Below, piece after piece: positions 9,743 through 26,486 of a stretch of 64,000 nucleotides of DNA. The stretch's first letter is position 1. The number at the start of each line of letters is the position of its first letter. A program made the translations under genes and the position numbers. The notes beneath the pieces were generated by a model that did no database searches, was not told the DNA's origin, and was given only the letters and a program-made list of their open reading frames with translations. Source of the DNA: an uncultured virus (IMG/VR IMGVR_UViG_3300025139_000008) (taxonomy: Duplodnaviria; Heunggongvirae; Uroviricota; Caudoviricetes); IMG/VR virus record IMGVR_UViG_3300025139_000008. One strand, 5' to 3'.

Positions 9743-9792
9743 GCCTGCGCGGCGCGAGACCCCTCCCGGAGGCCACTTCCGCGCCGGCTGCC

Positions 9793-10052
9793 GGTAAGGT
9801 TAACCGACGTTAACCTTTCTCCACCAGTAAGGTTAACAAAATCGGTCAATTTGTTAAGGTTAACAGCGCGTTAAGGTTAACGAACCCCTAATTTACCCCT
9901 CGTTAACCTTAACGAATATGGTTAACGGGCCATTAACCATGTTTGTTAACGTTAACGGCGAATTAAGGTTAATATGTGGAGCGATTTCGTTAAGGTTAAC
10001 AGATTCGGTGCATCCGTTAACGTTAACGAGGTCTCCCCTCCCCGTTAACCAT
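9793..10052. promoter_or_regulatory. second TTAA cluster containing perfect TTAA-N7-TTAA CtrA boxes
   Basis: TTAA-N7-TTAA at 9860-9874, 9922-9936 and 9952-9966, amid many GTTAAC. Confidence 0.75.
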
Positions 10053-10136
10053 CAAAGTGGAAAAAGTGCTTGACCGAATCGGCTGGGTCTGCGACTCAGG
10101 ATGCACGGCGAATCACCGCCGCTAGGAGACGACCGA

Positions 10137-10382
10137 ATGCCTTTGAAACCCGACGCCGCCGCCCGTAAGGACGCACTAGGGGCGAATCACCCTGCAACCC
10201 TCCAACATCGGCACTTCGCCGTAATCGCTGGAATCCTCGCCAACCTCGACCGGGACAGCCTCGGCTTGACGCAAGGCCAGCACCAGAACATCGCGGAAGA
10301 CTTCGCGGATGGCCTCGCCAACACGAATCCGAAGTTTGACCGCAAGCGATTCATGGTCGCCTGCGGCTTCGCGGCCCCCTGA
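10137..10382 (+). CDS. hypothetical cassette protein
   Basis: GGAGA RBS after the promoter repeat; ends in NPKFDRKRFMVAC. Confidence 0.8.
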   Translation: MPLKPDAAARKDALGANHPATLQHRHFAVIAGILANLDRDSLGLTQGQHQNIAEDFADGLANTNPKFDRKRFMVACGFAAP

Positions 10383-10526
10383 TGGGGTGTCTCGACGCTA
10401 TCGCCCGGTTCTTTCTGGGCATCTTTCTGCTGATCCTTGCAACTGGGCTGGCCTCGTGCCAGCCCCTTTTCTTTCGGTAACCATTCGTTAAGGTTAACAG
10501 ATTGGCCCTAGACGTTAACCATTAAA

Positions 10527-10576
10527 GTGGAAAAAGTGCTTGACCGAATCACTTGAGCCGCCTAGAAACGAATCAG
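10527..10576 (+). promoter_or_regulatory. representative cassette promoter: A-tract, TTGACC, 17-bp spacer, TAGAAA, two GANTC sites
   Basis: TTGACC-gaatcacttgagccgcc-TAGAAAC-gaatca resembles the alphaproteobacterial sigma70 consensus (TTGAC / GCTANAWC). Confidence 0.85.
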
Positions 10577-10624
10577 CAATGCAGGGCGCGACTCGCACCG
10601 GGCAGCTACAAACGGAGACAGACC

Positions 10625-11032
10625 ATGCCGGAATTTTTGATCGAATACACGAAGACCGAAGTCACCCGCGAACGGGTGTGGATCGAAGCCGACTCGCCTG
10701 CTGAGGCGCTGCGGATTGTCGAAGAATACGAATTTGACAACTCGGAAAGCTACGAAGTCGATTCGCTGCGCTGGGAAATCAGCGACGCGGAAGTGCAGGG
10801 CGAGACGCCGGACGAAGATGATCCGGAACCGGACGAAACGGAACCGAACGCCTTGCCAGTCGCTATCACCTGCGACCGTGGCGACACCATCGAAGTCGTT
10901 CACCGGACCGCCACCATCGCCGAGGCGGAAGAATGGATTAGCGTTGGCCTTGCCGACGGTTTCCTTGACGAAAACGACGTTGACCAAGGCCGCTACGGAA
11001 TCGACGCGCCGGAAGAAATGGTTAACCCATGA
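10625..11032 (+). CDS. acidic hypothetical cassette protein
   Basis: GGAGACAGACC-ATG; very D/E-rich. Confidence 0.8.
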   Translation: MPEFLIEYTKTEVTRERVWIEADSPAEALRIVEEYEFDNSESYEVDSLRWEISDAEVQGETPDEDDPEPDETEPNALPVAITCDRGDTIEVVHRTATIAEAEEWISVGLADGFLDENDVDQGRYGIDAPEEMVNP

Positions 11033-11469
11033 GCCGGGCCATCGCAATCCTGATCGACCCGCAAGGCGAAGAATGGTTCATGGCTTACGGGCCGAAAACC
11101 AAGCTTCGCGACAAGGCGAGCCGCTACATCAGCGCCGAAGTGGCGATGAAAGCGGCGCGGGCGATCATATTCGGACACCCGGATGCGTTCTGGAATAGCG
11201 AGCGCCAGCACGCCGAAAACACCCGGCGGGAACACAAGGGCTGGTCCTACCGAATTGAGGAAGTGCCGGACCACGACCGCAAGCGGGAAGGTTTCAGCGT
11301 GGCACGTTATCAGGCCGGGACAAGCGTCTACCACTATCACGCAATCGGCGGGGGTTTCACCACGGAAGAGGGCCGGGCCGTTCTATGGCCCACCCGCGCC
11401 AAGGCGCTGGAAATAGCGCAAGGCACTGTCAGGCCGGAAGGCTGGAACGTTTGCGTGCAAGACTACTGA
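11029..11469 (+). CDS. hypothetical cassette protein
   Basis: ATGA coupling; followed by a terminator. Confidence 0.8.
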   Translation: MSRAIAILIDPQGEEWFMAYGPKTKLRDKASRYISAEVAMKAARAIIFGHPDAFWNSERQHAENTRREHKGWSYRIEEVPDHDRKREGFSVARYQAGTSVYHYHAIGGGFTTEEGRAVLWPTRAKALEIAQGTVRPEGWNVCVQDY

Positions 11470-11473
11470 GATC

Positions 11474-11499
11474 GGCGGGCTCCGGCCCGCCTTTCTTTT
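11474..11499 (+). terminator. intrinsic terminator (representative of about 20 in the array)
   Basis: GGCGGGC-TCCG-GCCCGCC followed by TTTCTTTT. Confidence 0.85.
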
Positions 11500-11620
11500 G
11501 CCGGTAACTAATCGTTAAGGTTAACGCATCGGTGTAAATTGTTAACCATCAAAGTGGAAAAAGTGCTTGACCGAATCACTTGAGACACCTAGAAACGAAT
11601 CACCACAACGGAGACGACCA

Positions 11621-11926
11621 ATGCAAAAGACCTTTCAAGTTTACAACGATCCCGGCCACGGCTGGTGCAAGGTGCCGCTCGCAGTCATCGAAGCGATCGG
11701 CCTGACTGAGGGACACTTTTCGTCCTATAGCTACCGCAACGGGGACGCGCTGTTCCTCGAAGAGGATTGCGACCTCGGCACCTTCGCAAAGGCTTTCACT
11801 GAAAAGACGGGCTCGCCGCCCTCTTTCAAAGATAACTACTGCAACGGACGCAGCCGCATTCGCAGCTTTGCGTCGGTCCGCTCGGGCGAAGGTTATGCAG
11901 CCATCGCAGCCGCAAGGGGATATTGA
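11621..11926 (+). CDS. hypothetical cassette protein (DPGHGW...LEEDCD)
   Basis: RBS after the promoter repeat. Confidence 0.8.
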   Translation: MQKTFQVYNDPGHGWCKVPLAVIEAIGLTEGHFSSYSYRNGDALFLEEDCDLGTFAKAFTEKTGSPPSFKDNYCNGRSRIRSFASVRSGEGYAAIAAARGY

Positions 11927-11927
11927 C

Positions 11928-12257
11928 ATGGGAGACTTGCTTGACCGTTGCCTTGCCCGTCCGGGGAAAAACTACGGACCCGGCTACGGCTTCGCCCTTG
12001 CCTATCTTGACGACAAGATGAACCCCGCTCACTTGCGGGACGGCGCTTGTCACATGGTCGGCAAGGCATATGGCCCGCACGGCTGGGCTGAGGCTCGCAA
12101 GAGTCCTGATCTGGCGGCATTCGTGCTTGCATACAGCGAAGCGGAATGCTTCGAAGACTTCGCAATCGAAGCGGCGCAATTGCTGCTCGAATGGGGAATG
12201 CGTGGCGATCCGGACGCCGCCACCGTGCTTCGCCTTTGCGGCCATCCGGGTTATTGA
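11928..12257 (+). CDS. hypothetical cassette protein
   Basis: Second gene of the cassette, followed by a terminator. Confidence 0.75.
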   Translation: MGDLLDRCLARPGKNYGPGYGFALAYLDDKMNPAHLRDGACHMVGKAYGPHGWAEARKSPDLAAFVLAYSEAECFEDFAIEAAQLLLEWGMRGDPDAATVLRLCGHPGY

Positions 12258-12414
12258 GAGAGGGGCTTCGGCCCCTTTCTTTTGTCCTTTACCTGCTGTT
12301 AAGGTTAACGCATAGGGGTAATTTGTTAACCATCAAAGTGGAAAAAGTGCTTGACCGAATCAGCGAATCGCCCTAGCAAGGAATCACCGCAATCAAGCGG
12401 CTGGAGACAAAACA

Positions 12415-12771
12415 ATGACCACTCGAATCAACAAGGGCCGCGACGGTTGGCAGGCCAAGACTGAAACCGATCTGCCCGGCCTCACCCTGACGGAAGGTGA
12501 AAAGACGAAGCAAGGGGTTCTGACTATCAGCACCCGCAAGACTTCGCGTGGCCTCGAAACCGGCGTCAGTGTCGCTTTCCGCGACGGCATGTTCCTGACG
12601 CATCGTCTTTACGAAGACTTCAACGCCCGTTATGCCGCCAGCACCGCACGCTGCACGGAAAAGGCGATCCGCTCTATGCATGACGAAGCGCTCGCCAATC
12701 TGGAAACCCTCAAGGGCCATGCATACGCCCACTATGGCATGACTGCCCCGGTGGAAAGCGAAGCGGCATGA
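12415..12771 (+). CDS. hypothetical cassette protein
   Basis: GGAGA RBS after the promoter. Confidence 0.8.
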   Translation: MTTRINKGRDGWQAKTETDLPGLTLTEGEKTKQGVLTISTRKTSRGLETGVSVAFRDGMFLTHRLYEDFNARYAASTARCTEKAIRSMHDEALANLETLKGHAYAHYGMTAPVESEAA

Positions 12772-13073
12772 TCGAGCGCGATCAATTCTTCGACATGTTG
12801 CAACGCGTCGCCAATGACGGCGTTTGCGGCCAGCCCCGGCCCTATTCGGGCCGGGCCATGTATGGCAAGCAGTGCATCGCAGTGTCCGGTGATTATCTGG
12901 ACGAATGGGCGCTTGCCGTCGCGCTGGGGCACCAGTGCCGTTGCTGGGGACTTGACGTTCGCGATCTGCCTTCGCCGGACAGCGATTCGCTTGGCCGAGG
13001 CCGCGTCCTCTATTGGCCGCAATACGAATGGCCGGACGACCAGCCCGAACCGGCGGACGAAGACGAAGACTAA
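12768..13073 (+). CDS. hypothetical cassette protein (YSGRAMYGKQC)
   Basis: ATGA coupling; terminator follows. Confidence 0.8.
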   Translation: MIERDQFFDMLQRVANDGVCGQPRPYSGRAMYGKQCIAVSGDYLDEWALAVALGHQCRCWGLDVRDLPSPDSDSLGRGRVLYWPQYEWPDDQPEPADEDED

Positions 13074-13219
13074 GGGAAGGCGGGGCAACCCGCCTTTTCT
13101 TTTGTTCTTTACCCGGCGTTAAGGTTAACGAAGAGTTACGATTAAGTGGAAAAAGTTCTTGACCGAATCAGTTACCTACCCTAGAACGAATCATCGCATT
13201 AAGCGATTGGAGACAGACC

Positions 13220-13492
13220 ATGCTTATGAACCCCTCTGTAAATATCAATGGCACCAGCCGCGAGGCTCTTGTCGATGCCCGCCGGGATGCCTTCGAAGCG
13301 ATCCACGCCGCCATGAATGCGCTTCGCGAAACCATGCCCCATGGCCGCGATTACGTGGGCCGGGCGCATCAATTCTCGGTGGACCGGGCGATCTACATGG
13401 AACGGCACGCCGTCCTGTCGAAGCTGTCCGAAGACCTGATGGACGAAGCGCTCGCGATCCAGAATGCCGGGGCACGGGGCGCTGTGGTATGA
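13220..13492 (+). CDS. hypothetical cassette protein
   Basis: GGAGACAGACC-ATG. Confidence 0.8.
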   Translation: MLMNPSVNINGTSREALVDARRDAFEAIHAAMNALRETMPHGRDYVGRAHQFSVDRAIYMERHAVLSKLSEDLMDEALAIQNAGARGAVV

Positions 13493-13729
13493 CCTACATT
13501 CATCACGAAACATTCAGCAGCCCGGAAGCCGATGAGAACGAAAACGAGCGGACGCCGAGAAACGCGCAATGGAATATGAGAGAGGGGCTTAGGCCCCTCT
13601 TTCTTTACCGGAAACCACACGTTAACCTTAACAGACCAGCCGAACTCGTTAACCATCTGTGTGGAAAAAGTGCTTGACCTAATACAGCGACTCGCCTAGA
13701 AACGAATCACTTGAAACGGAGACAAGACC

Positions 13730-14428
13730 ATGAAACTTTTCCCTGATGCCGCCGCCCTCGAATCATCCGGCTATCTTTTCCGGATCACTGACAACGGCGG
13801 CGAAACCTTTGACAGAATCACCGTCACGTTTTGCGATGGCGACGCGCTCGTTTGCACGCTCGGGACCATTTGCGCCCACGTTGAACGGGTTGACGTTCAA
13901 GTTGACGCAGAAGCCGTCGAATCCGGCGAGGCGCGGGACTTGCGCTGGATTGATCTGGACCCCGGCCTGCAATCGCGCATCCTTGCCGATCTGAATAACG
14001 GCTTTGCGGATTATATCGAAGCCGCGCCCGCAGCCGCGACTCGGGACGAAGCCCGCGACTGGGAAGGGCTATGGGATCACTACAGTGATAAACGTTCGCC
14101 GATTTATAAGTTGGGGGATTATTATCGCATCCGCGATGATGAGCGCGACAATGAAAACGACGATGACGATGACGCCTTTGAGACGCCAGCATTCGCTACG
14201 TTCCGGGACGCCTTATTCTACATGTTGCCAACCGACTATGACTTGAGCGGCCCGGAATATCACACCACGGTCGATCTCTGGGATACCGAAGGGGGACCGG
14301 CTGAACCTTGGGAAAAGGAACAGGATTGCGGTCAATGCGAAGGCACCGGCACAATCGAAGGCGGACCGGGCGGTGATGGGGAGGATGAGGAATGCCCCGT
14401 CTGCGATGGGAAGGGCAAGCAGGGATAA
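13730..14428 (+). CDS. acidic protein with C-terminal DnaJ-type CxxCxGxG zinc finger
   Basis: CGQCEGTG...CPVCDGKG; own promoter and terminator. Confidence 0.8.
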   Translation: MKLFPDAAALESSGYLFRITDNGGETFDRITVTFCDGDALVCTLGTICAHVERVDVQVDAEAVESGEARDLRWIDLDPGLQSRILADLNNGFADYIEAAPAAATRDEARDWEGLWDHYSDKRSPIYKLGDYYRIRDDERDNENDDDDDAFETPAFATFRDALFYMLPTDYDLSGPEYHTTVDLWDTEGGPAEPWEKEQDCGQCEGTGTIEGGPGGDGEDEECPVCDGKGKQG

Positions 14429-14587
14429 ACTAGGCGGGCTCCGGCCCGCCTCTTTTCCCGGTAACCCGGCGTTAACCTTAACAAATCGGACTAAGTTGTT
14501 AACCATCAAAGTGGAAAAACTACTTGACCGAATCACTTGTGCCGCCTAGAAACGAATCACCGCAATCAAGCGGTTGGAGACTTGACC

Positions 14588-15010
14588 ATGCCTAAGTGGC
14601 AATACAGTGGCGACCTTGATCTGCGAGAGGGCGGATTCTTCTGGCTGGACAACGGCGATGAAGACTGGGTGGCAGCCGTAAGCGTGACCCCTTGCAGCAG
14701 CGCAAGCGGGCCTGACAATCTGTTCTATATCGAGTCGGGCTCGATCTACTTTGCCCGCGATAAGTATGCTGACTATCTGTCAGTGATCGGCATGGAACCG
14801 GAAGACGCGACTCGCGAAGACGTGATCTACGCCGCGCACGCCTATGCTGGAATCGAGCGGGACCACGAAACGGTCGTCCGAATTGGTAAGGACGAAAGAG
14901 CGTCGGACCCTTGGCGGTGGAACGATTCGGGGTGGAACCCGGAACCCGATGTAGTGCTGCGCGGTAATGCGAGCCTGCAACGTTGGGTTGAACGCGAGTA
15001 TCTGTCATGA
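14588..15010 (+). CDS. hypothetical cassette protein
   Basis: GGAGA RBS after the promoter. Confidence 0.8.
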   Translation: MPKWQYSGDLDLREGGFFWLDNGDEDWVAAVSVTPCSSASGPDNLFYIESGSIYFARDKYADYLSVIGMEPEDATREDVIYAAHAYAGIERDHETVVRIGKDERASDPWRWNDSGWNPEPDVVLRGNASLQRWVEREYLS

Positions 15011-15255
15011 ACGCCGATGCAATCGAAGCGGAAGCCGCCGCAATCGCCCAAGCCGTTGCCGAGCGTAAGGCCCGGCCCTATCAGGCCGATGACAAGGCCC
15101 TAGTGGCGGCCTACCTTGCCGCCTCTGGTGTCGCGGGCTCACGCTCTTGGGAGATAACCCCGGAAGCGTTGGACTTGCCCTACCCTGTGTGGGCGGCCAT
15201 CCGGGCGGCCTACTTCGAAGCCGCGTGCAAGTGGAAGCGGGAGTCCGGCGCATAG
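15007..15255 (+). CDS. hypothetical cassette protein
   Basis: ATGA coupling. Confidence 0.7.
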   Translation: MNADAIEAEAAAIAQAVAERKARPYQADDKALVAAYLAASGVAGSRSWEITPEALDLPYPVWAAIRAAYFEAACKWKRESGA

Positions 15256-15377
15256 CCGGGCTCTTTCCCGGTAACCATCCGTTAACCTTAACAAGTCGTT
15301 ACCACTAAGTGGAAAAAGTGCTTGACCGAATCGCTTGCGTCACTTAGAAACGAATCAGTTGAAACGGAGACAGACCA

Positions 15378-15881
15378 ATGCCTGAATTTCAAATGGATAA
15401 AGAGGGAACCGTCAATGGGATGGTTTTCGCCGATCTCTCCATGATCTTTCAGGGTTACGTGGAAGCGATGCTTTTCACGGAAAACTCGCCCGGCAATAGC
15501 ATGGTCGATTGGCTGGATGATGAAGTGCAGGCAGGCTTGCGGGAAGGCACCATTGACGGCTGCATTCCGGAAGATGCGGGCTGGGGTGATATTCACCCCG
15601 AATCGGCTGAGCGGATGCAACTCGATTGCCTTAACTTCGAAGTGCAAGCCCGCGATCTACTGGCGCAAGCCTATGAGCGCGACTATGACGCGGCGCAAGC
15701 GGGCCGGGATTTCTGGTTCACTCGCAACGGTCACGGCGTCGGCTTTTGGGACCGCAAGGAACTGGAAGCGGACGGGCTGGGGGATGCTCTCACCACCATC
15801 GCCGAGTCGTTCGGGCAAGTGTATGTCGATTTCATCGCAGACCCTGAAAGCCCGACCGGTTACGGTTACGTCCACGTCTGA
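15378..15881 (+). CDS. acidic hypothetical protein (GRDFWFTRNGHGVGFWDR)
   Basis: Single-gene cassette with promoter, RBS and terminator. Confidence 0.85.
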   Translation: MPEFQMDKEGTVNGMVFADLSMIFQGYVEAMLFTENSPGNSMVDWLDDEVQAGLREGTIDGCIPEDAGWGDIHPESAERMQLDCLNFEVQARDLLAQAYERDYDAAQAGRDFWFTRNGHGVGFWDRKELEADGLGDALTTIAESFGQVYVDFIADPESPTGYGYVHV

Positions 15882-16035
15882 GAGGGGAGGGGCCTTGCGC
15901 CCCTCTCTTTTTGTCCGGTAACCTATCGTTAAGGTTAACGTGCCGGCCGATCTTCTTAACCATCAAAGTGGAAAAAGTGCTTGACCGAATCACTTGGGTC
16001 ACCTAGAAACGAATCAGTTGAAACGGAGACAGACC

Positions 16036-16275
16036 ATGCAAACAGCTATTGAACGCCTCAAGGAAGCCGCCAAGGACTCATTCATGAAGCCGCAATCCTA
16101 CATGGGTGCGGACATTCAGGAAGCGATTATGGAAGCCGGGCTCGATCTGGAAGACGACAAGATTTATGCACGCCTCTCGGCTCCGGGCTATCTCGATTGC
16201 ACTGATTGGAGCGGTCCCTTCGACACCACGGAAGAGGCCGCACAAGCCTTGCTGGACCTCTACTTCGAAGATTGA
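16036..16275 (+). CDS. acidic hypothetical protein (ARLSAPGYLDCTDW)
   Basis: Single-gene cassette. Confidence 0.8.
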   Translation: MQTAIERLKEAAKDSFMKPQSYMGADIQEAIMEAGLDLEDDKIYARLSAPGYLDCTDWSGPFDTTEEAAQALLDLYFED

Positions 16276-16434
16276 GAGTAGGGGCTTCGGCCCCTCTCTT
16301 TTTGCCCGGTAACCAGCCGTTAACCTTAACAGCGTGGTAACTAAGTGGAAAAACTTCTGGACGAATTGGCTTGCGAATCACCTACGACTCGCCTATCAAG
16401 AGTTCAGCGCAATTCCGCGCTTGGAGACGACCAA

Positions 16435-16884
16435 ATGTCATCACCTTTCCTACCTTCGGTGCAAGAGCAACTACAAGCTCGCCGCGACGAATCGGACGAC
16501 GGCTTCGCCTGCGTTCATATCGATACCTGTCTTTCATCCTTTCTGAATGACCACCACAATCGCGATGGCGAATTGCTGCTGGGCGCAATCGTCTTCGGCG
16601 ATACTTCCATCGGTGAAGTCAAGAACGAACTGCTGAGCGAGTTCGACTCGGTGGCTTACGATCTGGCTGGTGAGCGTGCTGGCTATGACCACGACAAGGC
16701 TCGGAAAGCGATCCTGCGTGCGTTTGTGGACGTTCATCCCATGGAACTGGACCGGAAAGCTTTCGATCCTTCGCTGGATTTCCGCGACGAAGAGGACGAC
16801 GGCTTCGGCTGCGAGGAATACTGTCAAGCGTGGTTCCTCATTACGTGGAACGTTCCGGAAGAGGAGGACGAGACATCGGATTGA
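16435..16884 (+). CDS. acidic hypothetical cassette protein
   Basis: GGAGA RBS; variant promoter. Confidence 0.8.
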   Translation: MSSPFLPSVQEQLQARRDESDDGFACVHIDTCLSSFLNDHHNRDGELLLGAIVFGDTSIGEVKNELLSEFDSVAYDLAGERAGYDHDKARKAILRAFVDVHPMELDRKAFDPSLDFRDEEDDGFGCEEYCQAWFLITWNVPEEEDETSD

Positions 16885-17075
16885 TCGACGCACTCGCCCG
16901 CCTAGGTGTGGGCGTCCTCTTCCTTATCCTTGCAACTGGGCTGGCCGCGTGCCAGCCCCTTTTCTTTTGGTAACCATTCGTTAAGGTTAACAACAAGTGG
17001 AGTTCGGTGGAAAAAGTTCTTGACCAAATCGCTTGCACCGCCTAGAAACGAATCAGTTGAAACGGAGACAGACCA

Positions 17076-17348: not shown

Positions 17349-17350
17349 AC

Positions 17351-17596: not shown

Positions 17597-17752
17597 GGGG
17601 AGGGGCTTTGGCCCCTCTCTTTTTGTCTGTAAAAATTCGTTAAGGTTAACAGCCCGATAACCACTGGAAAAATAAATGGAGAAAGTGCTTGCGTGAATCG
17701 AATCACCGGCCTATTACCGAATCACCGGCACGGAGCCGGAAGGAGAAAGACC

Positions 17753-18839: not shown

Positions 18840-18947
18840 CCTTAACAGAAGTGTTTCACTTGTTAACCAACTTTGAAGTGGAAAAAGTGCTTGACCGAAA
18901 CAGCGAATCACCCTAGACCGGGATCACCAACAACGGAGACAAACCAA

Positions 18948-19346: not shown

Positions 19347-19515
19347 GGAAAGGCGGGGCAACCCGCCTTTTTCTTTGGGTGTAAACATTCGTTAAGGTTA
19401 ACGGAATCGGTCTATCGTGTTAACCATTCTTCAAAGTGGAAAAAGTGCTTGACCGAATCGCTGGAAAATGCGAATCAGGGTTTACCGGAAGAGACCGGAA
19501 AACAGGAGACAGACC

Positions 19516-19821
19516 ATGAAGACACTTTTTGAAATCCCGACCCGTGGCGATGACATGACCATGCCGGGCGGCATCGCGCTGCGCTACAACGAAAACCGCG
19601 AAGAGTTTGTGGTCCACAACTACAACACCGACCGGGAGACAGGCACCGAACGCAATTACTTTGGTGGCGGCTACTACTGCTCGGGCACACCGGCGGAACG
19701 TCTGAGCGGGGCCATGGCAGACCTCAGCAAGCGGGTTGCACGTCAGAGCAATTACGATCTGGGCGGCTCCATTGATGTGGAAGCTTTGACCGGACTCCCT
19801 GCCCGGCTCTACGCCATCTAA
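19516..19821 (+). CDS. hypothetical cassette protein
   Basis: AGGAGACAGACC-ATG. Confidence 0.8.
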   Translation: MKTLFEIPTRGDDMTMPGGIALRYNENREEFVVHNYNTDRETGTERNYFGGGYYCSGTPAERLSGAMADLSKRVARQSNYDLGGSIDVEALTGLPARLYAI

Positions 19822-20038
19822 TACCGGGACCCGGCACCCTGAGAACAGGGGCCGGGTTTCCAAACACCGGCGGGACCCGGCCCACTGAGAACAAGGGCCG
19901 GGTTTCCAAATTGGTAACCAATCGTTAAGGTTAACAAATTGATGAAATGAGTTAACTATTAAAGTGGAAAAAGTGCTTGACCGAATCGCTGGGAACGGGC
20001 AAACGAATCAGGCGCACTCAAGCGCAGGAGACAGACCA

Positions 20039-20326
20039 ATGCCCAAACTTTACAATGCGGACATTAGCATCACCGCGACCGCCTATGTGATCGCTGAGAA
20101 CGAAGACGACGCACGGGAAAAGATTAGCGCCCTTCAAGGGGACTACATCGAATTTTCCGACCGCCGCCAGCAAGTGGCAGACGACCTGTTCGTGACCGGC
20201 GAAACCTATGGCCCTGATATGCCGAAACTGTCGCTGAGCCCTGCTATGACCATCAACCACAGCGCGACTCGCCCCTATGTCTGTCTGGTGCAGGAACTGA
20301 CCGGCGAAGAAGAGGATGTAGGATGA
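20039..20326 (+). CDS. hypothetical cassette protein
   Basis: AGGAGA RBS. Confidence 0.8.
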   Translation: MPKLYNADISITATAYVIAENEDDAREKISALQGDYIEFSDRRQQVADDLFVTGETYGPDMPKLSLSPAMTINHSATRPYVCLVQELTGEEEDVG

Positions 20327-20598
20327 TGCACGAAGCCAATCAATCCCGGATCGACTGGGCAAAGAACGCCCTCGATACCTTCACCATCGAAACCTATGGC
20401 GGACGGCCTTACTCGACGCTTGAAGCGCAATGCGCCGACTGCGAAGAAGGTGAGGGTGACGACTACACGGCCATCCAAGACCTTATCGGTGATTTGCTCC
20501 ATGTGGCCCACGAAAGAGGCTGGAACACAGCCGAACTAATCCGGCGGGCGGAAGCCAACTTCGTCTATGAAGCTGCACCGGACTATCAAGGCGACTAA
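20323..20598 (+). CDS. acidic hypothetical cassette protein
   Basis: Coupled ORF; terminator follows. Confidence 0.8.
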   Translation: MMHEANQSRIDWAKNALDTFTIETYGGRPYSTLEAQCADCEEGEGDDYTAIQDLIGDLLHVAHERGWNTAELIRRAEANFVYEAAPDYQGD

Positions 20599-20932
20599 GG
20601 GAGAGGGGCTTCGGCCCCTCTTTGCTTTTTGGTCGTTTTGGATCACCGCCGCTTTGGATCGACGCGACTTTGGATCGCCCCGGTTTTGGGTTTGGATCAT
20701 TTCGATTTTCATGATCGCCGCCATTTTGCAGGAGCCCGGACCGACCGACCGAACCAGCCGACCGAGCCCCACGCTCCCCACCAGCAGATGGTTAACGAAA
20801 CTGACCAATCTGTTAAGGTTAACGCCGGCGGCCGAATCCGTTAAGGAATATGGTTAACAGATTGGCTGATTTTGTTAACCATCAAAGTGGAAATAGTGCT
20901 TGACCGAATCAGCGAATCGGTCCATACCCGAA

Positions 20933-21046
20933 TGGTAAATGGCTGGACAGCCAGATCAAGGAACTGGATTGCGATTGGGGCGACCCTGTTTCACCTGAAT
21001 GCGAATCGCATCTCTATTGAGGGAGCGGGCTTCGGCCCGCCTCTTG
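20933..21046 (+). ncRNA. candidate small RNA (cassette with promoter and terminator but no RBS-led ORF)
   Basis: Promoter at 20900, hairpins including GGG-GCGA-CCC, terminator GCGGGC-TTCG-GCCCGC. Confidence 0.4.
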
Positions 21047-21187
21047 GCTGGTAACGGTTTGTTAAGGTTAACGGTCGGCCGGGATTTGTTAACCATCAAA
21101 GTGAAAAGTAAGTGGAAAAACTGCTTGACCGAATCGGCTTAGACTGGCACTAACGAATCACCGCAATCAAGCGGACGGAGAAAGACT

Positions 21188-21274
21188 ATGAGCCGACACC
21201 AGAAACGCCGCCTTGCCGCCAAGCGTGCGCGCATCGCCATTCTTTCCTCGTGGATCGCAAAGGGCCGCCGCTAA
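21188..21274 (+). CDS. 28 aa basic peptide MSRHQKRRLAAKRARIAILSSWIAKGRR
   Basis: GGAGA RBS after the promoter; TAATG coupling to the next gene. Confidence 0.65.
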   Translation: MSRHQKRRLAAKRARIAILSSWIAKGRR

Positions 21275-21540
21275 TGGCTGGCTTCTGGGATCGCGTGGAC
21301 ACCCTCGAAATGGTGGAACTCTACGCCGAGGACAACGGCCAGATTGCCAGCGAAGAGGAGCTTTCCAAGCGCTTTGACGAAGAAGTGCTTCCCGATGTGA
21401 TCGCACACTACGGCGAAAACGATTCGGTTGCTATCAATGAAGAATTTAGCAACTGGTCGGACATGCTGTGTAAGGACGGCGAAATTCACCCGGAACAATA
21501 CAATTCGTATTGCTACGTTGGAAAGCTGGCAGACGACTAA
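21274..21540 (+). CDS. highly acidic small protein
   Basis: Coupled start MAGFWD. Confidence 0.8.
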   Translation: MAGFWDRVDTLEMVELYAEDNGQIASEEELSKRFDEEVLPDVIAHYGENDSVAINEEFSNWSDMLCKDGEIHPEQYNSYCYVGKLADD

Positions 21541-21651
21541 GGCGAGGGGCTTAGGTCCCTCACCAAACTTTTTTTTTGTAATTAGTGGAAAAAGTGCTTG
21601 ACCGAATCGGTTGGTTCGCCTAGAAACGAATCAACAGCAACGGAGGCAGTC

Positions 21652-21756
21652 ATGCAGATCAACACCTACCACGTTTACATCAACAACACCTTTTCCGGGA
21701 TCATCTCGGCGGTGTCTTACCGGCAAGCGCGCCAGCGCGCTAAGGCCAAGGTTTGA
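21652..21756 (+). CDS. 34 aa peptide resembling the N-terminus of 26214..26486
   Basis: GGAGG RBS; sole ORF between promoter and terminator. Confidence 0.65.
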   Translation: MQINTYHVYINNTFSGIISAVSYRQARQRAKAKV

Positions 21757-21918
21757 GGGGAGGGGCTTCGGCCCCTCTTTCTTTTTGCCCGGTGAAATTT
21801 GTTAACCTTAACGAATATGGTTAACAAATTGACGTTTGGGGTTAACTATCAAAGTGGAAAAAGTGCTTGACCGAATCGGTGACTCGTGCGAAAACGAATC
21901 ATCAATCGGAGACAGATC

Positions 21919-22050
21919 ATGCAAAACATCCGCAAGAATCCCATTGCCGCCTCGCTCGCCAGCGCTCACCTCGCCCCTCGCAAGGTTCGCGCTCGTAAAG
22001 GCAAGGGCTCTTTCCGCCGCAACCCCAAGCATCGGGGAGTGGCGGCATGA
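21919..22050 (+). CDS. ArfA-like (alternative ribosome rescue factor-like) peptide, 43 aa
   Basis: MQNIRKNPIAASLASAHLAPRKVRARKGKGSFRRNPKHRGVAA carries the N-x-I..L.....R.....KGKGS-aromatic-x-R..KH signature; GGAGA RBS; below the ORF-track cutoff. Confidence 0.7.
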   Translation: MQNIRKNPIAASLASAHLAPRKVRARKGKGSFRRNPKHRGVAA

Positions 22051-22229
22051 GCCGCGCTCGCAACACCCTCGACTCCCGCTATAGCGTGCGCCTCGAATGG
22101 TGCGGACGTGCGACGCAGCAATGGGTTGCCCGCTTCTGTGGTGATTGGCTCGGATGCGACTCGACCCGCTCGGGCGCTGAGGAAATCGCCCGTCTGTATG
22201 AGCGCGACCGCTGGAGCATGGCAGCATGA
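22047..22229 (+). CDS. hypothetical protein (EWCG...WVARFCGDW)
   Basis: ATGA coupling. Confidence 0.75.
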   Translation: MSRARNTLDSRYSVRLEWCGRATQQWVARFCGDWLGCDSTRSGAEEIARLYERDRWSMAA

Positions 22230-22570
22230 GCGACCGCATCCGCCCCGTGACTTTCGACTCGGCCCAGATCGAGCCCTTTGCTGCTCGCATCATCGGCATA
22301 GCCGCTTCGCAATTCTGTCGCCTCAAAGAGCGCGAGAAAGAGACCGGAGAGAAGTCGGACCCCTTCGACATGGAAGATGCTCTTATGCATCTCTGGTGGG
22401 CTCTCAAGGGGCTTGATCACATTGCAATAGCGTTACGCGGCGGCAGGGACTGCGACGACGTGTCAGGCGTTCATTTTTCCATGGTGATGAATGCGGAACA
22501 CAGCAGGATTCGCCGCCTCATCATGGAAGAACTTGGAGTCGATCCCGGATCGCATCCGCGCTGGAAATGA
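22226..22570 (+). CDS. hypothetical cassette protein
   Basis: ATGA coupling; terminator follows. Confidence 0.75.
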   Translation: MSDRIRPVTFDSAQIEPFAARIIGIAASQFCRLKEREKETGEKSDPFDMEDALMHLWWALKGLDHIAIALRGGRDCDDVSGVHFSMVMNAEHSRIRRLIMEELGVDPGSHPRWK

Positions 22571-22777
22571 GGGGCTTCGGCCCCTCTCTTTTTGCCCGGT
22601 AACCCCACGTTAAGGTTAACCGATCGGGCGAAGTTGTTAACCATCAAAGTGAAATTGAAGTGGAAAAAGTTCTTGCACGAATCAGCGAATCGCCCTAGAC
22701 CCGAATCACCGGGCGGCACCTACTGACTGGCAGAGCAGCAGCAAGGCTCGCCCGGTAACTCACACAGGAGACAGGCT

Positions 22778-22939
22778 ATGTTCGAAGTCAAGACCACCCT
22801 GCGGACCTACAAGGTCGAAGCCAATCACATCAACGCCGCTTTCATCGCCGCAAACGTGCTGGCAGTGGAAGGCGAAGAAATCCTTTCCGTGGCCTATGCT
22901 GGGCCCGTCACGTTCATCATCGTGGAGATCGCGGCATGA
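22778..22939 (+). CDS. 53 aa hypothetical protein
   Basis: AGGAGA RBS; coupled to the next gene. Confidence 0.7.
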   Translation: MFEVKTTLRTYKVEANHINAAFIAANVLAVEGEEILSVAYAGPVTFIIVEIAA

Positions 22940-23154
22940 TCAGCAAGAAAGATGCCATCGCCAAGGCAATCGCGGCTGGAGCCTCGGAGGAGGAAATTGA
23001 TCGCCAAGCCGCAAACTACGTCCGCCAAGTCGGCACCGTGCCTTTCAACAACATGATTCGGGCTCTCAACATCGGCCCTTGGCACAACACCGTTGACGAC
23101 TGGACTCGGCTGGCAGCAGCCCTGACCGCGAGGGGATTGGCGCGAAAGCGCTAA
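22936..23154 (+). CDS. hypothetical cassette protein
   Basis: ATGA coupling. Confidence 0.75.
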   Translation: MISKKDAIAKAIAAGASEEEIDRQAANYVRQVGTVPFNNMIRALNIGPWHNTVDDWTRLAAALTARGLARKR

Positions 23155-23274
23155 TTCCTTAACGGAATTGATGAATTTGTTAAGGTTAACGCGAATTAAG
23201 AATAAAGTGGAAAAAGTGCTTGACCGAATCAGTTAACCATCCTAGAAACGAATCAACAGCAACGGAGACACACA

Positions 23275-23487
23275 ATGAAGATCAAGATCAAGACCACCGC
23301 TCGCTACACCGCAAAGCGCAAAGCCGCCATCATCGCCGATGTGGACAACGGCACCACCACCCTCGAAGACGTTTGCAGCCTGCACAACATCACAAGCGAA
23401 GAGTTTGCTGGCTGGCGTAAGTCGCTGGATCGCTCGGGACAGCAGGGGCTTCGGATCACTCGCCTGCAACACTACCGGGCAGCATAA
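23275..23487 (+). CDS. sciP: SciP / DUF1153 family small CtrA-inhibitory protein homologue
   Basis: RYTAKRKAAII..V..G..TLEDVC..HNITSEEF..W...LDRSG..GLR.TRLQHYR matches the SciP pattern RW...RKA.VV..V..G....EEAC..Y.LS.EEF..W....DRHG..GLR.TR.Q.YR. Confidence 0.85.
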   Translation: MKIKIKTTARYTAKRKAAIIADVDNGTTTLEDVCSLHNITSEEFAGWRKSLDRSGQQGLRITRLQHYRAA

Positions 23488-23637
23488 GGGGAGGGGCTTC
23501 GGCCCCTTTTCTTTTGGCCTTAACCCAGTGTTAAGGTTAACAGATCAGCCGAATTAGTTAACCAATTAGCTGGAAAAAGTGCTTGACCGAATCAGCGAAT
23601 CACCTTAGACCCGAATCACAAACAACGGAGACAGACC

Positions 23638-23880
23638 ATGCGTTTTCTTTCTGCAACCCTTATGGCCCTCGGCCTTTTAGCTGGTTATGGTGCTTTCTAC
23701 ATGACAGCGAACATTGACCTAACCCCGCTCGCCCCTGAGGCCCGGACCGTCACCCAGATGCTCTTTAACGCCCTTGCTATGTGCGGGCTTTGCCTGCCCG
23801 CCTTGTCGATGCTAGCGCTGCACGACGACGCAAACTTGCGCCGCCAGTATCCCCACCGCTATCGCAAGAATCGCCGCTAA
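23638..23880 (+). CDS. small two-TM membrane protein
   Basis: Two hydrophobic segments and a basic C-terminal tail. Confidence 0.75.
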   Translation: MRFLSATLMALGLLAGYGAFYMTANIDLTPLAPEARTVTQMLFNALAMCGLCLPALSMLALHDDANLRRQYPHRYRKNRR

Positions 23881-24044
23881 TGGAAACGCTGGCAGAATAT
23901 CGCCACAAGCGCGACCGGGCAATCGTTCAACGCCGCATGGGCGAAGAGCGCCGCCGCCACGTCAATCAATGCGTGGCTGACATCATCGCACAAGGTAAGA
24001 TGGAAGAGCGCCGCCAGACCATCCGCCGGGAGGAAGATCAATGA
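23880..24044 (+). CDS. hypothetical protein (METLAEYR...)
   Basis: TAATG coupling. Confidence 0.65.
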   Translation: METLAEYRHKRDRAIVQRRMGEERRRHVNQCVADIIAQGKMEERRQTIRREEDQ

Positions 24045-24241
24045 CAGACCGCCGATTCGTTATCGTGGAAAACGCCGGATATGAAGGCGAAAAAGACATC
24101 ACCCACTTTCTCACCTTGCGGGAGGCATTCGCCTATCAGCGCGGCCATTATGAGCCGGACGAGATCGAAGAATTGCACGTCGATATTCGCCAAGACTGGA
24201 CGGACGAAAACGGCGATTTTCATCAGGAATATGTCTATTAG
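24041..24241 (+). CDS. acidic hypothetical protein
   Basis: GGAGG RBS; coupled. Confidence 0.75.
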   Translation: MTDRRFVIVENAGYEGEKDITHFLTLREAFAYQRGHYEPDEIEELHVDIRQDWTDENGDFHQEYVY

Positions 24242-24308
24242 GTGGAAAAAGTGCTTGACCGAATCGATGGACTATGCGAAAACGAATCATCGAAACGGAG
24301 ACAAGCAA

Positions 24309-24503
24309 ATGACCACCATCCTGATCCTCGCAATCGCCTTCCTGATCACCGCCACCGTGGCAATCATCAAGGCCCGCGCCGAACTCGCCGCTCACGCCGC
24401 CGAACAGGCAAGCAAGCATATCCCCAACCCAACCGAATACACCGGCCCGCGCTTCACCGCACATGGCCGGGAAATCCAACAGACCGGACGCCGGATCATC
24501 TGA
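24309..24503 (+). CDS. single-TM small protein
   Basis: GGAGA RBS; hydrophobic N-terminus. Confidence 0.75.
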   Translation: MTTILILAIAFLITATVAIIKARAELAAHAAEQASKHIPNPTEYTGPRFTAHGREIQQTGRRII

Positions 24504-24659
24504 GAAAGGGGCGGGAGAAATCCCGCCCTTTTCTTTGTCTGGTAACCGGGTGTTAAGGTTAACAAAACGGTTAAATTCGTTAACCATCAAAGTGGAAAAA
24601 ATGCTTGACCGAATCGGCTGGTATGTTTAGACCCGAATCACTGGAAACGGAGACAGACC

Positions 24660-24857
24660 ATGAGCAATTCCACCGAACAAGCAATGGCCGCCGACCTCGA
24701 CCTTTGCGACATGATCCTTGCATTCGGAACGCCTGCCGCCAAGCGCAAGGCCCGCGCCCACCGCAAGGCTTGTTTCGCAGAAATCGCCCGGATGAACGCC
24801 GAGTCTGGGACTGACAAGCTGAGCGATGATGAATTACTCGCCGAATTGATGGCCTGA
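24660..24857 (+). CDS. hypothetical cassette protein
   Basis: GGAGACAGACC-ATG. Confidence 0.8.
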   Translation: MSNSTEQAMAADLDLCDMILAFGTPAAKRKARAHRKACFAEIARMNAESGTDKLSDDELLAELMA

Positions 24858-25045
24858 CAGGAACCGGCCCCTGACAACAGGGGCCGGGACCCTAATTCAC
24901 TGAGAAAAGGGGCCGGGCTCCAAAATCGTAAATTCAGGTTAACCTTAACCGATCGGCCGAAATCGTTAACCATCAAAGTGGAAAAAGTGCTTGACCGAAT
25001 CGGCTGGCGCGTTTAGACCCGAATCACTGGAAACGGAGCCAGACC

Positions 25046-25321
25046 ATGGAAAGATTCGAACTGACAGGCTCGGGCATCAGCGACGGGCAGAATCCGGAAA
25101 AACTGCTTGCCGCCGCGAAAAAGTGCGGCCTTCACAATCCCCGACTCGCCTATCACTTCGGCTGGTCGAATCAGCCGAAAACGATTCGTTTCAGCGCTGA
25201 AAGCTGGGAAGCTGCCGATAAGGTCGCCGATCTGGTGCGAACCGAATTTTACCCGGAAAATGCCGAGGGCCGTTTGTGCCCGATGATTCGGGCCTATCCG
25301 GTGAAAGCCCCGGAAGCCTGA
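25046..25321 (+). CDS. hypothetical cassette protein
   Basis: GGAG RBS; terminator follows. Confidence 0.8.
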   Translation: MERFELTGSGISDGQNPEKLLAAAKKCGLHNPRLAYHFGWSNQPKTIRFSAESWEAADKVADLVRTEFYPENAEGRLCPMIRAYPVKAPEA

Positions 25322-25494
25322 TCCCGGAAAAGCCCGATTCGCCGAATCGGGCTTTTTCTTTGGCGGTAATCTCTGGTTAACCTTAATAAAACGGCGAAAT
25401 TCGTTAACCCTAAAAATCGGGATTTTCTGGAAAAAGTGCTTGACCGAATCGGCCTTTTCTGGAAAAACCGAATCACCGCAAACGGAGAAATGAC

Positions 25495-25650
25495 ATGATC
25501 ACCATGGAAGCGATTATCGGGGGCCTTATTTCGGGGTTCGCTGTGCGCCTCTATGGTGCAGGACTGGCGCTCTATGTGGGCCTGTGTGCGAGCGACCTTA
25601 TCAGCAGCACCCTTGCCAGCGCCACGGCTACCCTAGACACCCTACCCTAA
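25495..25650 (+). CDS. 51 aa hydrophobic peptide
   Basis: GGAGA RBS after promoter 25440; MITMEAIIGGLISGFAVRLYGAGLALYVGLC. Confidence 0.55.
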   Translation: MITMEAIIGGLISGFAVRLYGAGLALYVGLCASDLISSTLASATATLDTLP

Positions 25651-25719
25651 CCTACTCTGTCCTGCCCGGCCTAGGCTGTGTGCGCGGCTCTCGGCTGCTA
25701 TGGATCAAGGTCATTTTAG

Positions 25720-25830
25720 GTATGCGTGCGTGTGCGCGTGCGTGCGTGTGCGCCTGTGCGTGCGCCTGTGCGGGCGCGTGCGCCTGCGGGTGTGCGCGCC
25801 TGCGTGTGTGTGTGCATGTGTGCGCGTGCC
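25720..25830. repeat. alternating purine-pyrimidine (GT/GC)n tract
   Basis: gtatgcgtgcgtgtgcgcgtgcgtgcgtgtgcg... for about 110 bp with few interruptions. Confidence 0.9.
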
Positions 25831-25848
25831 TGCCTAGGCGCGCACGAG

Positions 25849-26207
25849 GTGGAAAAACAAACTCACAAACTAATTCATTTTGTTATTGATTTGGTAACGA
25901 ATCCCTGCGATAAAGGGACATCGAAAGCGAACGGAGACAAGACCATGTTCAAGATCATTGACACCGCAAACAACAGCGAATGCCTTGGTAGCTATGAAAC
26001 CCGCGCTGGGGCAGACTACGGGCTCGGCATGGTAGCTTGTGGACGTGGTAACGACTCGGGCTTGCGTATCGTCAACCAAATGACTCATTGCGTAGAAGTG
26101 CCCGCCACGTTCTAAGTAGTGGAAAAACAAACTAACAAAATAATTCATTTTGTTATTGATTTGGTAACGAATCCCTGCGATAAAGGGACATCGAAAGCGA
26201 ACGGAGA
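25849..26207 (+). repeat. two near-identical ~89-bp promoter/RBS units (second cassette promoter type)
   Basis: GTGGAAAAACAAACT.ACAAA.TAATTCATTTTGTTATTGATTTGGTAACGAATCCCTGCGATAAAGGGACATCGAAAGCGAACGGAGA at 25849 and 26119. Confidence 0.9.
25945..26115 (+). CDS. hypothetical cassette protein
   Basis: GGAGA RBS; MFKIIDT start. Confidence 0.7.
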   Translation: MFKIIDTANNSECLGSYETRAGADYGLGMVACGRGNDSGLRIVNQMTHCVEVPATF

Positions 26208-26213
26208 AACAAC

Positions 26214-26486
26214 ATGACCAACCTGATCCCCACCTTCCGCGTTTACAAGAACAAGGTCCTTGTCGGCACCGTGTCGGCAACCACCGAACAGCAGGCCCAT
26301 GCCCGCGCATACGGCAAGTATGGCCGCTGCGAAGTCATGAAGGCTGACATGGAGCGCCGCCTTAGCACTAGCGGCCGTGTGGAGCGCGCTGACAGCAGCT
26401 TCACCCATGGCCGCAGCCCCTACCCCACCCCCGGCTTTGAGGCACGCCGTGCCGCTGAAATCGCCCGCTGGAAAGCGGGCGAATAA
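26214..26486 (+). CDS. basic hypothetical cassette protein
   Basis: GGAGA RBS; last gene of the array. Confidence 0.75.
   Translation: MTNLIPTFRVYKNKVLVGTVSATTEQQAHARAYGKYGRCEVMKADMERRLSTSGRVERADSSFTHGRSPYPTPGFEARRAAEIARWKAGE

Follow-up and report, generated by a model that had tools for sequence, protein, structure and literature searches.

Repeated promoter units between terL and phoH

The stretch of DNA analyzed here, referred to as the window, is the whole 64,000 nucleotides of IMG/VR record IMGVR_UViG_3300025139_000008 from an uncultured tailed virus (Caudoviricetes), and the element in question is an array of small genes set behind repeated copies of one promoter design. The array occupies the interval between terL, the gene of the terminase large subunit, and phoH (10049-26486); the order in the window is a RuvC-like resolvase gene, the terminase small subunit gene (terS), terL, 1.4 kb of non-coding repeats, the array, phoH and the portal gene (29713-31479). 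A junction profile made from 24 strict copies and searched with nhmmer across the 64 kb gave 27 matches (E 4e-19 to 7e-4); every one of them is on the + strand and within 10049-25478. The other 12 matches had E values of at least 0.24. Three of the 27 promoters, at 16339, 17673 and 22654, are diverged copies. The 22-mer AAAGTGGAAAAAGTGCTTGACC was matched 22 times at up to 3 mismatches, again exclusively on the + strand, with 0 matches expected. Two copies of a second, AT-rich promoter type (type 2; TTGATT-N17-GATAAA) are located at 25842-25935 and 26112-26205 and share the same GGAGA ribosome-binding site. A first-pass annotation, made from the sequence alone, had described 27 modules plus 2 of a second type, all on the + strand and with a GGAGAC ribosome-binding site; the profile search returned the same numbers on the same strand, and GGAGA or GGAGAC precedes the first gene in 26 of the 27 units.

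Forty genes were called in the array, with products of 28 to 232 amino acids (median 90), and each homology family occurs once within the window. The units were said to hold one to three unrelated small genes, which is in accordance with this, but unit 17 has no convincing open reading frame (ORF). The 12-mer box GTTAAGGTTAAC has 41 matches at up to one mismatch against 0.09 expected; 33 of them are exact, 32 of these within 8633-24949, and 23 of the 27 junctions contain the box. Its supposed occurrence in either orientation comes down to the centre of the palindrome GTTAA-SS-TTAAC, which is either GG or CC. A crude scan placed a terminator hairpin (dG <= -10, T-rich tail) upstream of 17 of the 27 promoters, and a consensus terminator scan gave about a dozen strong + strand terminators. 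The promoter at 24235 has neither box nor terminator. Promoters do start at 10049, close to where the array had been made to begin, but boxes begin earlier, in two clusters between terL and the first promoter (Table 1).

Table 1. Position and content of the array units and neighbouring features in the window.
Feature	Position	Strand	Details
RuvC-like Holliday junction resolvase	5911-6447	+	phrog_1770, E 1.8e-32
Terminase small subunit (terS)	6451-7029	+	Pfam Terminase_2, E 4e-8; PHROGs
Terminase large subunit (terL)	6869-8602	+	Pfam Terminase_6C
First box cluster	8633-8783		five GTTAA-SS-TTAAC boxes and two TTAACCAT, tandem 43- and 27-bp units
Tandem repeat	9570-9744	+	~7 copies of ATGGATCGAGGCCATTTT; same place in V1, V2, XM05, RXM
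Second box cluster	9793-10027		nine copies, just upstream of first promoter
Unit 1	10049-10382	+	promoter 10049-10106; gene 10137-10382 (81 aa), 79% to XM05 homologue
Unit 2	10519-11469	+	promoter 10519-10577; genes 10625-11032 (135 aa, pI 4.05), 11029-11469 (146 aa)
Unit 3	11546-12257	+	genes 11621-11926 (101 aa), 11928-12257 (109 aa)
Unit 4	12330-13073	+	genes 12415-12771 (118 aa), 12768-13073 (101 aa)
Unit 5	13140-13492	+	gene 13220-13492 (90 aa)
Unit 6	13653-14428	+	gene 13730-14428 (232 aa, largest; pI 4.05)
Unit 7	14503-15255	+	genes 14588-15010 (140 aa), 15007-15255 (82 aa)
Unit 8	15303-15881	+	gene 15378-15881 (167 aa; viral family phrog_1915, function unknown)
Unit 9	15960-16275	+	gene 16036-16275 (79 aa)
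Unit 10	16339-16884	+	diverged promoter (E 7e-4); gene 16435-16884 (149 aa), 84% to XM05
Unit 11	17003-17596	+	genes 17076-17348 (90 aa), 17351-17596 (81 aa)
Unit 12	17673-18199	+	diverged promoter (TTGCGT); gene 17753-18199 (148 aa)
Unit 13	18299-18726	+	gene 18370-18726 (118 aa), absent from XM05
Unit 14	18871-19346	+	gene 18948-19346 (132 aa)
Unit 15	19429-19821	+	gene 19516-19821 (101 aa)
Unit 16	19956-20598	+	genes 20039-20326 (95 aa), 20323-20598 (91 aa)
Unit 17	20879-21050	+	full type-1 promoter, ~125 nt without ribosome-binding site or convincing ORF, then terminator
Unit 18	21108-21540	+	genes 21188-21274 (28 aa), 21274-21540 (88 aa)
Unit 19	21582-21756	+	gene 21652-21756 (34 aa)
Unit 20	21846-22570	+	genes 21919-22050 (43 aa, ArfA-like), 22047-22229 (60 aa), 22226-22570 (114 aa)
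Unit 21	22654-23154	+	diverged promoter (TTGCAC); genes 22778-22939 (53 aa), 22936-23154 (72 aa)
Unit 22	23202-23487	+	gene 23275-23487 (70 aa), SciP-like (DUF1153) helix-turn-helix protein
Unit 23	23562-24241	+	genes 23638-23880 (80 aa), 23880-24044 (54 aa, start uncertain), 24041-24241 (66 aa)
Unit 24	24235-24503	+	promoter overlaps preceding gene end, no box or terminator; gene 24309-24503 (64 aa)
Unit 25	24584-24857	+	gene 24660-24857 (65 aa)
Unit 26	24970-25321	+	gene 25046-25321 (91 aa), 80% to L02, no XM05 homologue
Unit 27 (last type-1)	25424-25650	+	gene 25495-25650 (51 aa, hydrophobic)
Right-end element	25687-25835	+	single copy of TCGGCTGCTATGGATCnnnnnCATTTT (TCGGCTGCTATGGATCAAGGTCATTTT), then ~110-bp alternating GYGC tract
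Type-2 unit A	25842-26115	+	TTGATT-N17-GATAAA, GAATC in spacer; gene 25945-26115 (56 aa)
Type-2 unit B	26112-26486	+	gene 26214-26486 (90 aa); homologues in XM05, Lacusarx, RXM
PhoH-like ATPase, downstream limit of array	27080-27901	+	Pfam PhoH, E 1.6e-67
aa, amino acids; pI, isoelectric point; the other genomes are introduced in the text.

Anatomy of the promoters

Promoter statistics were pooled from 144 promoters of five genomes. The order of elements in a unit is the intrinsic terminator of the previous unit, often GGTAACC, the 12-bp palindrome, about 15 nt and GTTAACCAT, followed by the A-rich tract AAAGTGGAAAAAGTGC, TTGACC, GAATC(A), about 12 nt, a -10-like hexamer (at best TAGAAA), CGAATCA, a short leader, a strong GGAGAC and ATG. 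The core promoter of a typical unit reads TTGACC-N17-TAGAAA, a spacing of -35 and -10 within the sigma-70 range of 16-18 nt. TTGACC is present as the -35 in 130 of the 144 promoters and the -10 is variable, with TAGAAA in just 49; because a generic promoter scan demands T at position 6 of the -10, such a scan misses these promoters. GANTC stands directly after the -35 in 128 promoters and CGAATCA directly after the -10 in 114. All 43 + strand copies of CGAATCA in the window are inside the array. A search for sigma-70 region 2 detected no gene of the sigma-70 family, whether in four complete relatives or in G001, another assembly of the phage (see below), and a search for a T7-type polymerase had no match, although this search was weak and the control genomes were silent too. 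Host sigma-70 RNA polymerase is therefore the likely reader of the array promoters.

The motif TTAACCAT, listed as an ungapped variant of the CtrA motif in PMC6180460, has 23 matches in the window against 0.88 expected, 22 of them within 8663-24973. Sites resembling the gapped CtrA motif accompany it: 18 junction sites differ from the canonical TTAA-N7-TTAA by one mismatch (TTAA-N7-TTAC), and 65 of the 144 junctions have a near-full site (GKTAA-N7-TTAA) that overlaps the box. The half-site TTAACCA starts 25 nt ahead of the -35 in 52 of 81 cases and lies 21 nt from the box in 53 cases. The box itself starts 53 nt (46 cases), 41 nt (18) or 63/64 nt (10) ahead of the -35, i.e. in steps of about one helical turn, and we infer from this phasing an arrangement such as would be expected of an upstream activator. 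A single exact box at 32733-32744, some 120 nt ahead of the major capsid gene (32863-33789), and a single TTAACCAT at 37225-37232 in the tail module are the sole copies beyond the early region.

Related phages and the probable terminal repeat

The portal protein is 90% identical to that of Erythrobacter phage XM05, 72% to vB_EliS-L02 (L02), 68% to Sphingobium phage Lacusarx and 59% to Citromicrobium phage RXM, the phiCbK-like Caulobacter phages being more distant matches, and at the amino acid level TerL is 91% identical to XM05 TerL and 68-70% to those of L02 and Lacusarx. The source is a siphophage similar to Lacusarx and XM05 and belonging to the phiCbK cluster, probably a virulent, prolate-headed phage of sphingomonads. 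The layout terL - array - phoH - portal is the same in XM05, L02, Lacusarx and RXM. The same promoter design was found in XM05 (32 profile matches), L02 (19) and Lacusarx (8, by pattern) and in three IMG/VR contigs, V1 (40), V2 (31) and V3 (31), and the TerL proteins of the relatives that share it are 68-91% identical to that of the window. The public runs that contain the window sequence are aquifer metagenomes. The second assembly, G001, is 99.98% identical to and collinear with the window over 40 kb (15909-55906); it is the same phage and consequently offers no variation.

By analogy with these relatives, the array is most likely a long direct terminal repeat. A region of about 10.5 kb directly after terL has twofold coverage in Lacusarx (Nielsen 2017, PMC5648845), as do the first 10,992 bp of RXM (PMC8953757), a span that in the RXM record extends from inside terL to just before phoH. 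The 10.3-kb repeat of phiCbK begins at terL codon 652 and that of Colossus, about 16.7 kb, just after terL (Gill 2012, PMC3556154). The terminal repeats of the phiCbK cluster, Lacusarx included, are described as holding many small unknown genes and dense predicted CtrA sites (Mascolo 2022, PMC9437464). For the window itself a twofold step was sought in contig depth and rejected, as two DNA runs, with one depth figure per contig, gave no clean step: in run X8 the array and the terL flank have depths of about 20-22 and the phoH side 12.2, in run X1 the depths are 8.0, about 11, then 10.3 and 5.7, and the contigs of the runs break at promoters. The contig of units 6-7 (13695-15374) has about twice the depth of its neighbours in two DNA runs (25.9 vs ~11; 46.2 vs ~21), an excess that may reflect a sequence shared with a co-occurring relative or duplicated. 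In runs X1 and X8 (8000-27999) the letters between joints and loose ends show an L02-type promoter variant, suggesting a second related phage in the same samples. Bracketing 18-mers were considered as the boundaries of the repeat and rejected as such, because in RXM they do not form the left boundary: the RXM repeat begins about 700 nt inside terL, and the tandem 18-mers are located about 730-860 nt downstream of terL.

The ATGGATCGAGGCCATTTT tandem and the right-end element, which together with its GYGC tract is kept in V1, V3 and XM05, could be packaging or replication signals. Clusters of GGGGACCC flanking the array are not enriched (6 vs 3.2 expected). Five TTTGGATC-type repeats of tandem period 16 are situated between units 16 and 17 (20637-20730).

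Gene content

A Pfam scan left 38 of the 40 array proteins without a family match, and their PHROGs matches are families of unknown function, save for a weak transposase helix-turn-helix match of the SciP-like protein. Acidic products are frequent (19 of 40 with pI below 5). The product of 21919-22050 is an ArfA-like ribosome-rescue factor (Pfam ArfA, E 2e-7, 30.8 bits vs a cut-off of 25.5), and a homologue of this gene is annotated in the RXM terminal repeat. The SciP-like protein of unit 22 matches Pfam DUF1153 (E 6.5e-20, 71.5 bits vs a cut-off of 23.5) and the NCBIfam model 'CtrA inhibitor SciP' (NF051866; E 7.5e-19, 67.7 bits), aligning to positions 28-90 of the 90 in the profile. Its gene is also present in XM05 and G001, and only eight close homologues, of 68-70 amino acids, were found. 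A complex prediction for the SciP-like protein and Caulobacter CtrA gave no answer (score 0.00). The RXM terminal repeat has an annotated ArdA anti-restriction gene, of which no homologue was found in the window; the protein of 15378-15881 has no similarity to the ArdA of RXM, and in the ESM Atlas it matched unnamed viral clusters only.

Unit 17, whose ORF-less stretch is 87% conserved in V1, is possibly a small RNA or a decayed unit; the stretch folds no better than its shuffles (z -1.25), and an Rfam scan gave no family match in the window, unit 17 included. Eleven short contig pieces from the RNA runs of two metatranscriptomes exactly match array genes, whereas the 3.6 kb of flanks had no match; array expression is hinted at weakly at most, the array being 82% of the compared stretch and carry-over of DNA being possible.

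Side by side with these genes stand several in the remainder of the window. A protein with a lipid desaturase / fatty-acid hydroxylase domain (Pfam PF10520, E 9e-34) is encoded between phoH and portal (28794-29318) and also in L02, which is an unusual auxiliary gene for a phage. Two adjacent paralogous tail proteins of about 1,190 amino acids each (46881-50480 and 50950-54498) both have the Phage-tail_3 and Rcc01698_C domains, as do the host-specificity proteins of gene transfer agents, and the head-tail module includes a protein with an HNH endonuclease domain (34738-35358).

A probable early region read by the host

We consider it probable, from the comparisons above, that the array is an early region made of repeated host-type promoter units, probably terminally redundant, whose differences between phages stem from ordinary mosaicism. 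This retains two parts of the first-pass annotation, the self-contained promoter-gene-terminator units and the plausibly early timing. Host polymerase would fire all units together after injection, and the helically phased upstream boxes would let host CtrA activate the promoters, as for gp005 and gp018 of phiCbK. CtrA binds and activates the CbK_gp005, CbK_gp018 and Cp1R7AA1_019 promoters of phiCbK and Cp1R7A-A1, and phiCbK terminal-repeat promoters are active in uninfected Caulobacter (PMC9437464). The CGAATCA pair would provide CcrM methylation sites in a GcrA-preferred context, possibly offsetting the weak -10, and the SciP-like protein from unit 22 may later damp CtrA-dependent transcription.

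GANTC is the site methylated by CcrM, and on the opposite strand CGAATCA reads TGATTCG, the top consensus of GcrA. This protein, for which the consensus is given as TGATTCG / YGAKTCK, acts as a cofactor of sigma-70 and helps the open complex to form (PMC4647560). In the array promoters GANTC in YGAKTCK context lies within 40 bp of the inferred start site, at fixed offsets, and in the type-2 promoters GAATC centres near -20. Several observations weigh against the proposed regulation. By the inferred start, the GANTC pair of the type-1 promoters would centre near -27 and -3, while the sites of GcrA-regulated Caulobacter promoters are near -20 or at +2 to +30 (PMC4647560); motifs of GcrA, SciP and DnaA had no positional skew in the phage set of Mascolo 2022 (PMC9437464); and neither a GcrA gene nor a gene of a CcrM-type methylase was found in the relatives. 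The canonical CtrA site occurs only four times in the window, three of them upstream of the array (9860-9966, in the second box cluster), and the N2 spacing of the 12-mer box is that of no known CtrA site, so that the box could be the operator of another protein. Finally, the 67.7 bits of the SciP-like protein are below the 100-bit equivalog cut-off, its N-terminal third (about 27 profile positions) is missing, and its gene is absent from L02, Lacusarx and RXM.

The offsets, the missing genes and the lack of skew also speak for another explanation, in which the CGAATCA pair consists of core promoter, start-site or mRNA-leader elements that come from an ancestral unit and have no relation to CcrM or GcrA. 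The units plausibly descend by duplication from one ancestor, and the second site is at the inferred start, so it would also form the 5' end of each mRNA. This explanation is quite possible, yet we lean away from it: the 7-mer matches the GcrA consensus exactly in reverse complement, both places are kept in L02 and Lacusarx in spite of TerL identities of just 68-70%, CGAATCA is better conserved than the neighbouring -10 (114 vs 49 of 144), and its + strand copies are confined to the array.

We think it unlikely, to a greater degree, that the 12-mer and TTAACCAT are operators of a phage regulator, for example an early-gene repressor that turns the array off, or of some host regulator besides CtrA, their likeness to CtrA motifs then being no more than partial. 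The box, in which 2 bp separate two perfectly inverted halves, is typical of the operators of dimeric helix-turn-helix proteins and unlike TTAA-N7-TTAA; it is near-invariant and recurs in the two promoter-less clusters; and the array codes for at least one helix-turn-helix protein. On the other side stand the description of TTAACCAT as a CtrA motif variant (PMC6180460), the overlap of near-full CtrA sites with the box, and the binding and activation by CtrA of terminal-repeat promoters in the same cluster (PMC9437464). Moreover, L02 and Lacusarx have kept the boxes and lack the SciP-like protein, the sole DNA-binding candidate found.

The early region read by host polymerase can be extended to a more speculative reading, in which the early programme is tied threefold to the alphaproteobacterial CtrA/CcrM/GcrA/SciP circuit and acts as a self-limiting early switch that senses the state of the host. 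It would combine CtrA boxes in helical phase upstream of every early promoter, a pair of GcrA-consensus CcrM sites around a deliberately weak -10 in each promoter, through which methylation-dependent transcription would tell injected from newly replicated DNA, and a truncated phage SciP that would turn CtrA-dependent transcription off again. Taken jointly these three elements make a tentative and rather doubtful proposal. Neither paired GcrA-type sites in each early promoter nor a phage SciP-like gene were found in the literature searched, although the supplements of PMC9437464 may bear on CtrA sites. The repetition of 27-40 near-identical sigma-70 promoters with fixed box geometry, a GANTC pair and a terminator per unit is likewise not described in the texts searched; the main text of the L02 paper mentions neither promoters nor repeats, and the name Lacusarx was not found in 12 supplement files of Mascolo 2022, 13 further files being outside the search.

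Turnover of units between relatives

The first-pass annotation had viewed the array as a functionally integron-like library of plug-and-play cassettes, gained, lost or reordered by recombination between the conserved junctions. Gain and loss are evident, as five relatives share between 13 and 32 of the window's 37 families and the close relatives and the window have 27-40 units. Reordering is rare: the common families are collinear in 30 of 32 cases in V1, 22 of 22 in V2, 17 of 19 in V3, 17 of 20 in XM05 and 9 of 13 in L02. Relatives thus differ widely in which families they have, but mostly agree in how these are arranged. The first gene of unit 11 (17076-17348) is 79% identical to its L02 homologue vs 52% to that of XM05, and is one of the window genes nearer to L02 than to XM05, the closest relative overall; in unit 13 the flanking homology to V1 stops exactly at the ATG of 18370-18726.

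Breakpoints were counted as the ends of homology blocks of at least 250 bp against V1, V2, V3 and XM05 (101 ends). Of these ends, 76 fall in intergenic junctions (33% of the array length), 16 inside genes and the remaining nine at gene-gene borders inside units, which are 1.1% of the length and have no junction repeat. These nine ends indicate that the gene, and not just the cassette, is a unit of exchange. Genes also change units without a promoter: in XM05 the homologue of the second gene of unit 2 (11029-11469) belongs to another unit and adjoins the homologue of 22047-22229. Adjacency is kept in 69 of 88 pairs inside units vs 131 of 236 across promoters (Fisher p 1.7e-4, from non-independent pairs), and consecutive blocks that are not collinear overlap within junctions at 10462-10498, 12336-12362, 19436-19477 and 22598-22711. 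It weighs against our own account as well that the counts of block ends and adjacencies come from related genomes and are not independent events; because of this relatedness, and because alignments run through look-alike junctions, the counts overstate the case.

These counts, together with the genes nearer to L02 and the range of array sizes, speak for junction recombination as a dedicated and frequent process, with cassettes gained, lost and reordered, which we nevertheless consider improbable. Orthologous promoters have an identity of 0.74 and are more alike than promoters within a genome (0.59), so promoters travel with their genes and show no homogenisation; a search for their concerted evolution was negative, non-orthologous promoters of different genomes being at the same 0.59. 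The motif profile and the gene order of relatives bear out the first-pass view in part, with breakpoints mostly in junctions but at repeat-free gene borders too, and with the order largely fixed. A scan of 81 ORFs (40 in the array and 41 flanking) turned up no integrase or recombinase family, in agreement with the initial description, the nearest functions being the RuvC-like resolvase (5911-6447) and the HNH endonuclease. A promoter of its own for each unit is the opposite of integron logic, nothing resembling attC logic was found, although no attC model was run, and the second assembly is structurally identical over 15909-55906. Apparent deletions in the population, for example 10535->18881 (run X8, one contig, side 39), were rejected, as such promoter-to-promoter contig joints are inside repeats, and so unreliable, or come from the co-occurring relative. 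The integron analogy is to be dropped. In the account that we prefer, units would diversify by insertion, deletion and replacement at gene borders, which is ordinary phage mosaicism, and the junction homology of about 100 bp would ease exchange with no dedicated recombination system.

It is very improbable that the 23-bp invariant block TGGAAAAAGTGCTTGACCGAATC, although it exceeds the length that sigma-70 recognition needs, serves as promoter for an RNA polymerase or sigma factor specific to the phage and that the genes are middle or late, given its textbook -35, the -10-like hexamer that follows at 17 nt, the lack of matches in the weak T7-type polymerase search and in the sigma-70 region-2 search described above, and the activity of phiCbK terminal-repeat promoters in uninfected cells (PMC9437464).

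From these results an uncultured aquifer phage can be placed in a cluster whose terminal repeats were already linked to CtrA, and this link gains a testable anatomy, one promoter design occurring 27-40 times per genome in phages from Erythrobacter to Sphingobium. If the GANTC pair and the SciP-like gene are functional, the 'lytic deferment' by CtrA would widen to a hijack of the cell-cycle and motility circuit. The approximately 40 small, often acidic proteins per genome, with their fast turnover, are a screening set for host-takeover or anti-defence activity.

Comparison with known systems

Integrons possess the IntI integrase, attI and attC sites and promoterless cassettes read from one Pc promoter. 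The array resembles them as an ordered same-strand series of small unrelated genes with a recurring junction and a content that varies between relatives. It differs in that no integrase was found, each unit has a promoter and terminator (27 type-1 and 2 type-2 promoters), the order is largely kept, breakpoints also fall at plain gene borders and promoters are co-inherited; unlike the attC layout, its junction is a terminator, a 12-bp palindrome and a promoter. The host-takeover module of Bacillus phage SPO1 lies in the terminal redundancy and consists of small early genes in short operons with strong host-type promoters and ribosome-binding sites, many of the products having host-shutoff or unknown functions. 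Gill 2012 (PMC3556154) mentions coliphage T5, whose terminal repeat holds the pre-early first-step-transfer region. Both are like the array in being terminal repeats with small early genes, short operons and strong host-type promoters, and unlike it in belonging to unrelated lineages with other hosts and in not being known to have CtrA or GANTC motifs.

The Caulobacter promoters governed by GcrA and CcrM (Haakonsen 2015, PMC4647560) share with the array a sigma-70 promoter in which GANTC in TGATTCG context flanks a weak -10; in the array the sites would be near -27 and -3, the promoters belong to a phage, and no GcrA of phage origin was found. The product of unit 22 is like Caulobacter SciP in matching both of its models (NCBIfam NF051866; Pfam DUF1153), and unlike it in having 70 amino acids without the N-terminal third, a sub-equivalog score and a phage as its carrier. 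The terminal repeats of the phiCbK cluster differ from the array as canonical TTAA-N7-TTAA sites are rare in the latter, and the Lacusarx annotation (PMC5648845) has one promoter and one terminator per module. They have in common with it the cluster, the position after terL, the 10-17 kb of small, functionally uncharacterized genes on the + strand, intergenic motifs resembling CtrA sites, and sites and genes that come and go from one relative to another.

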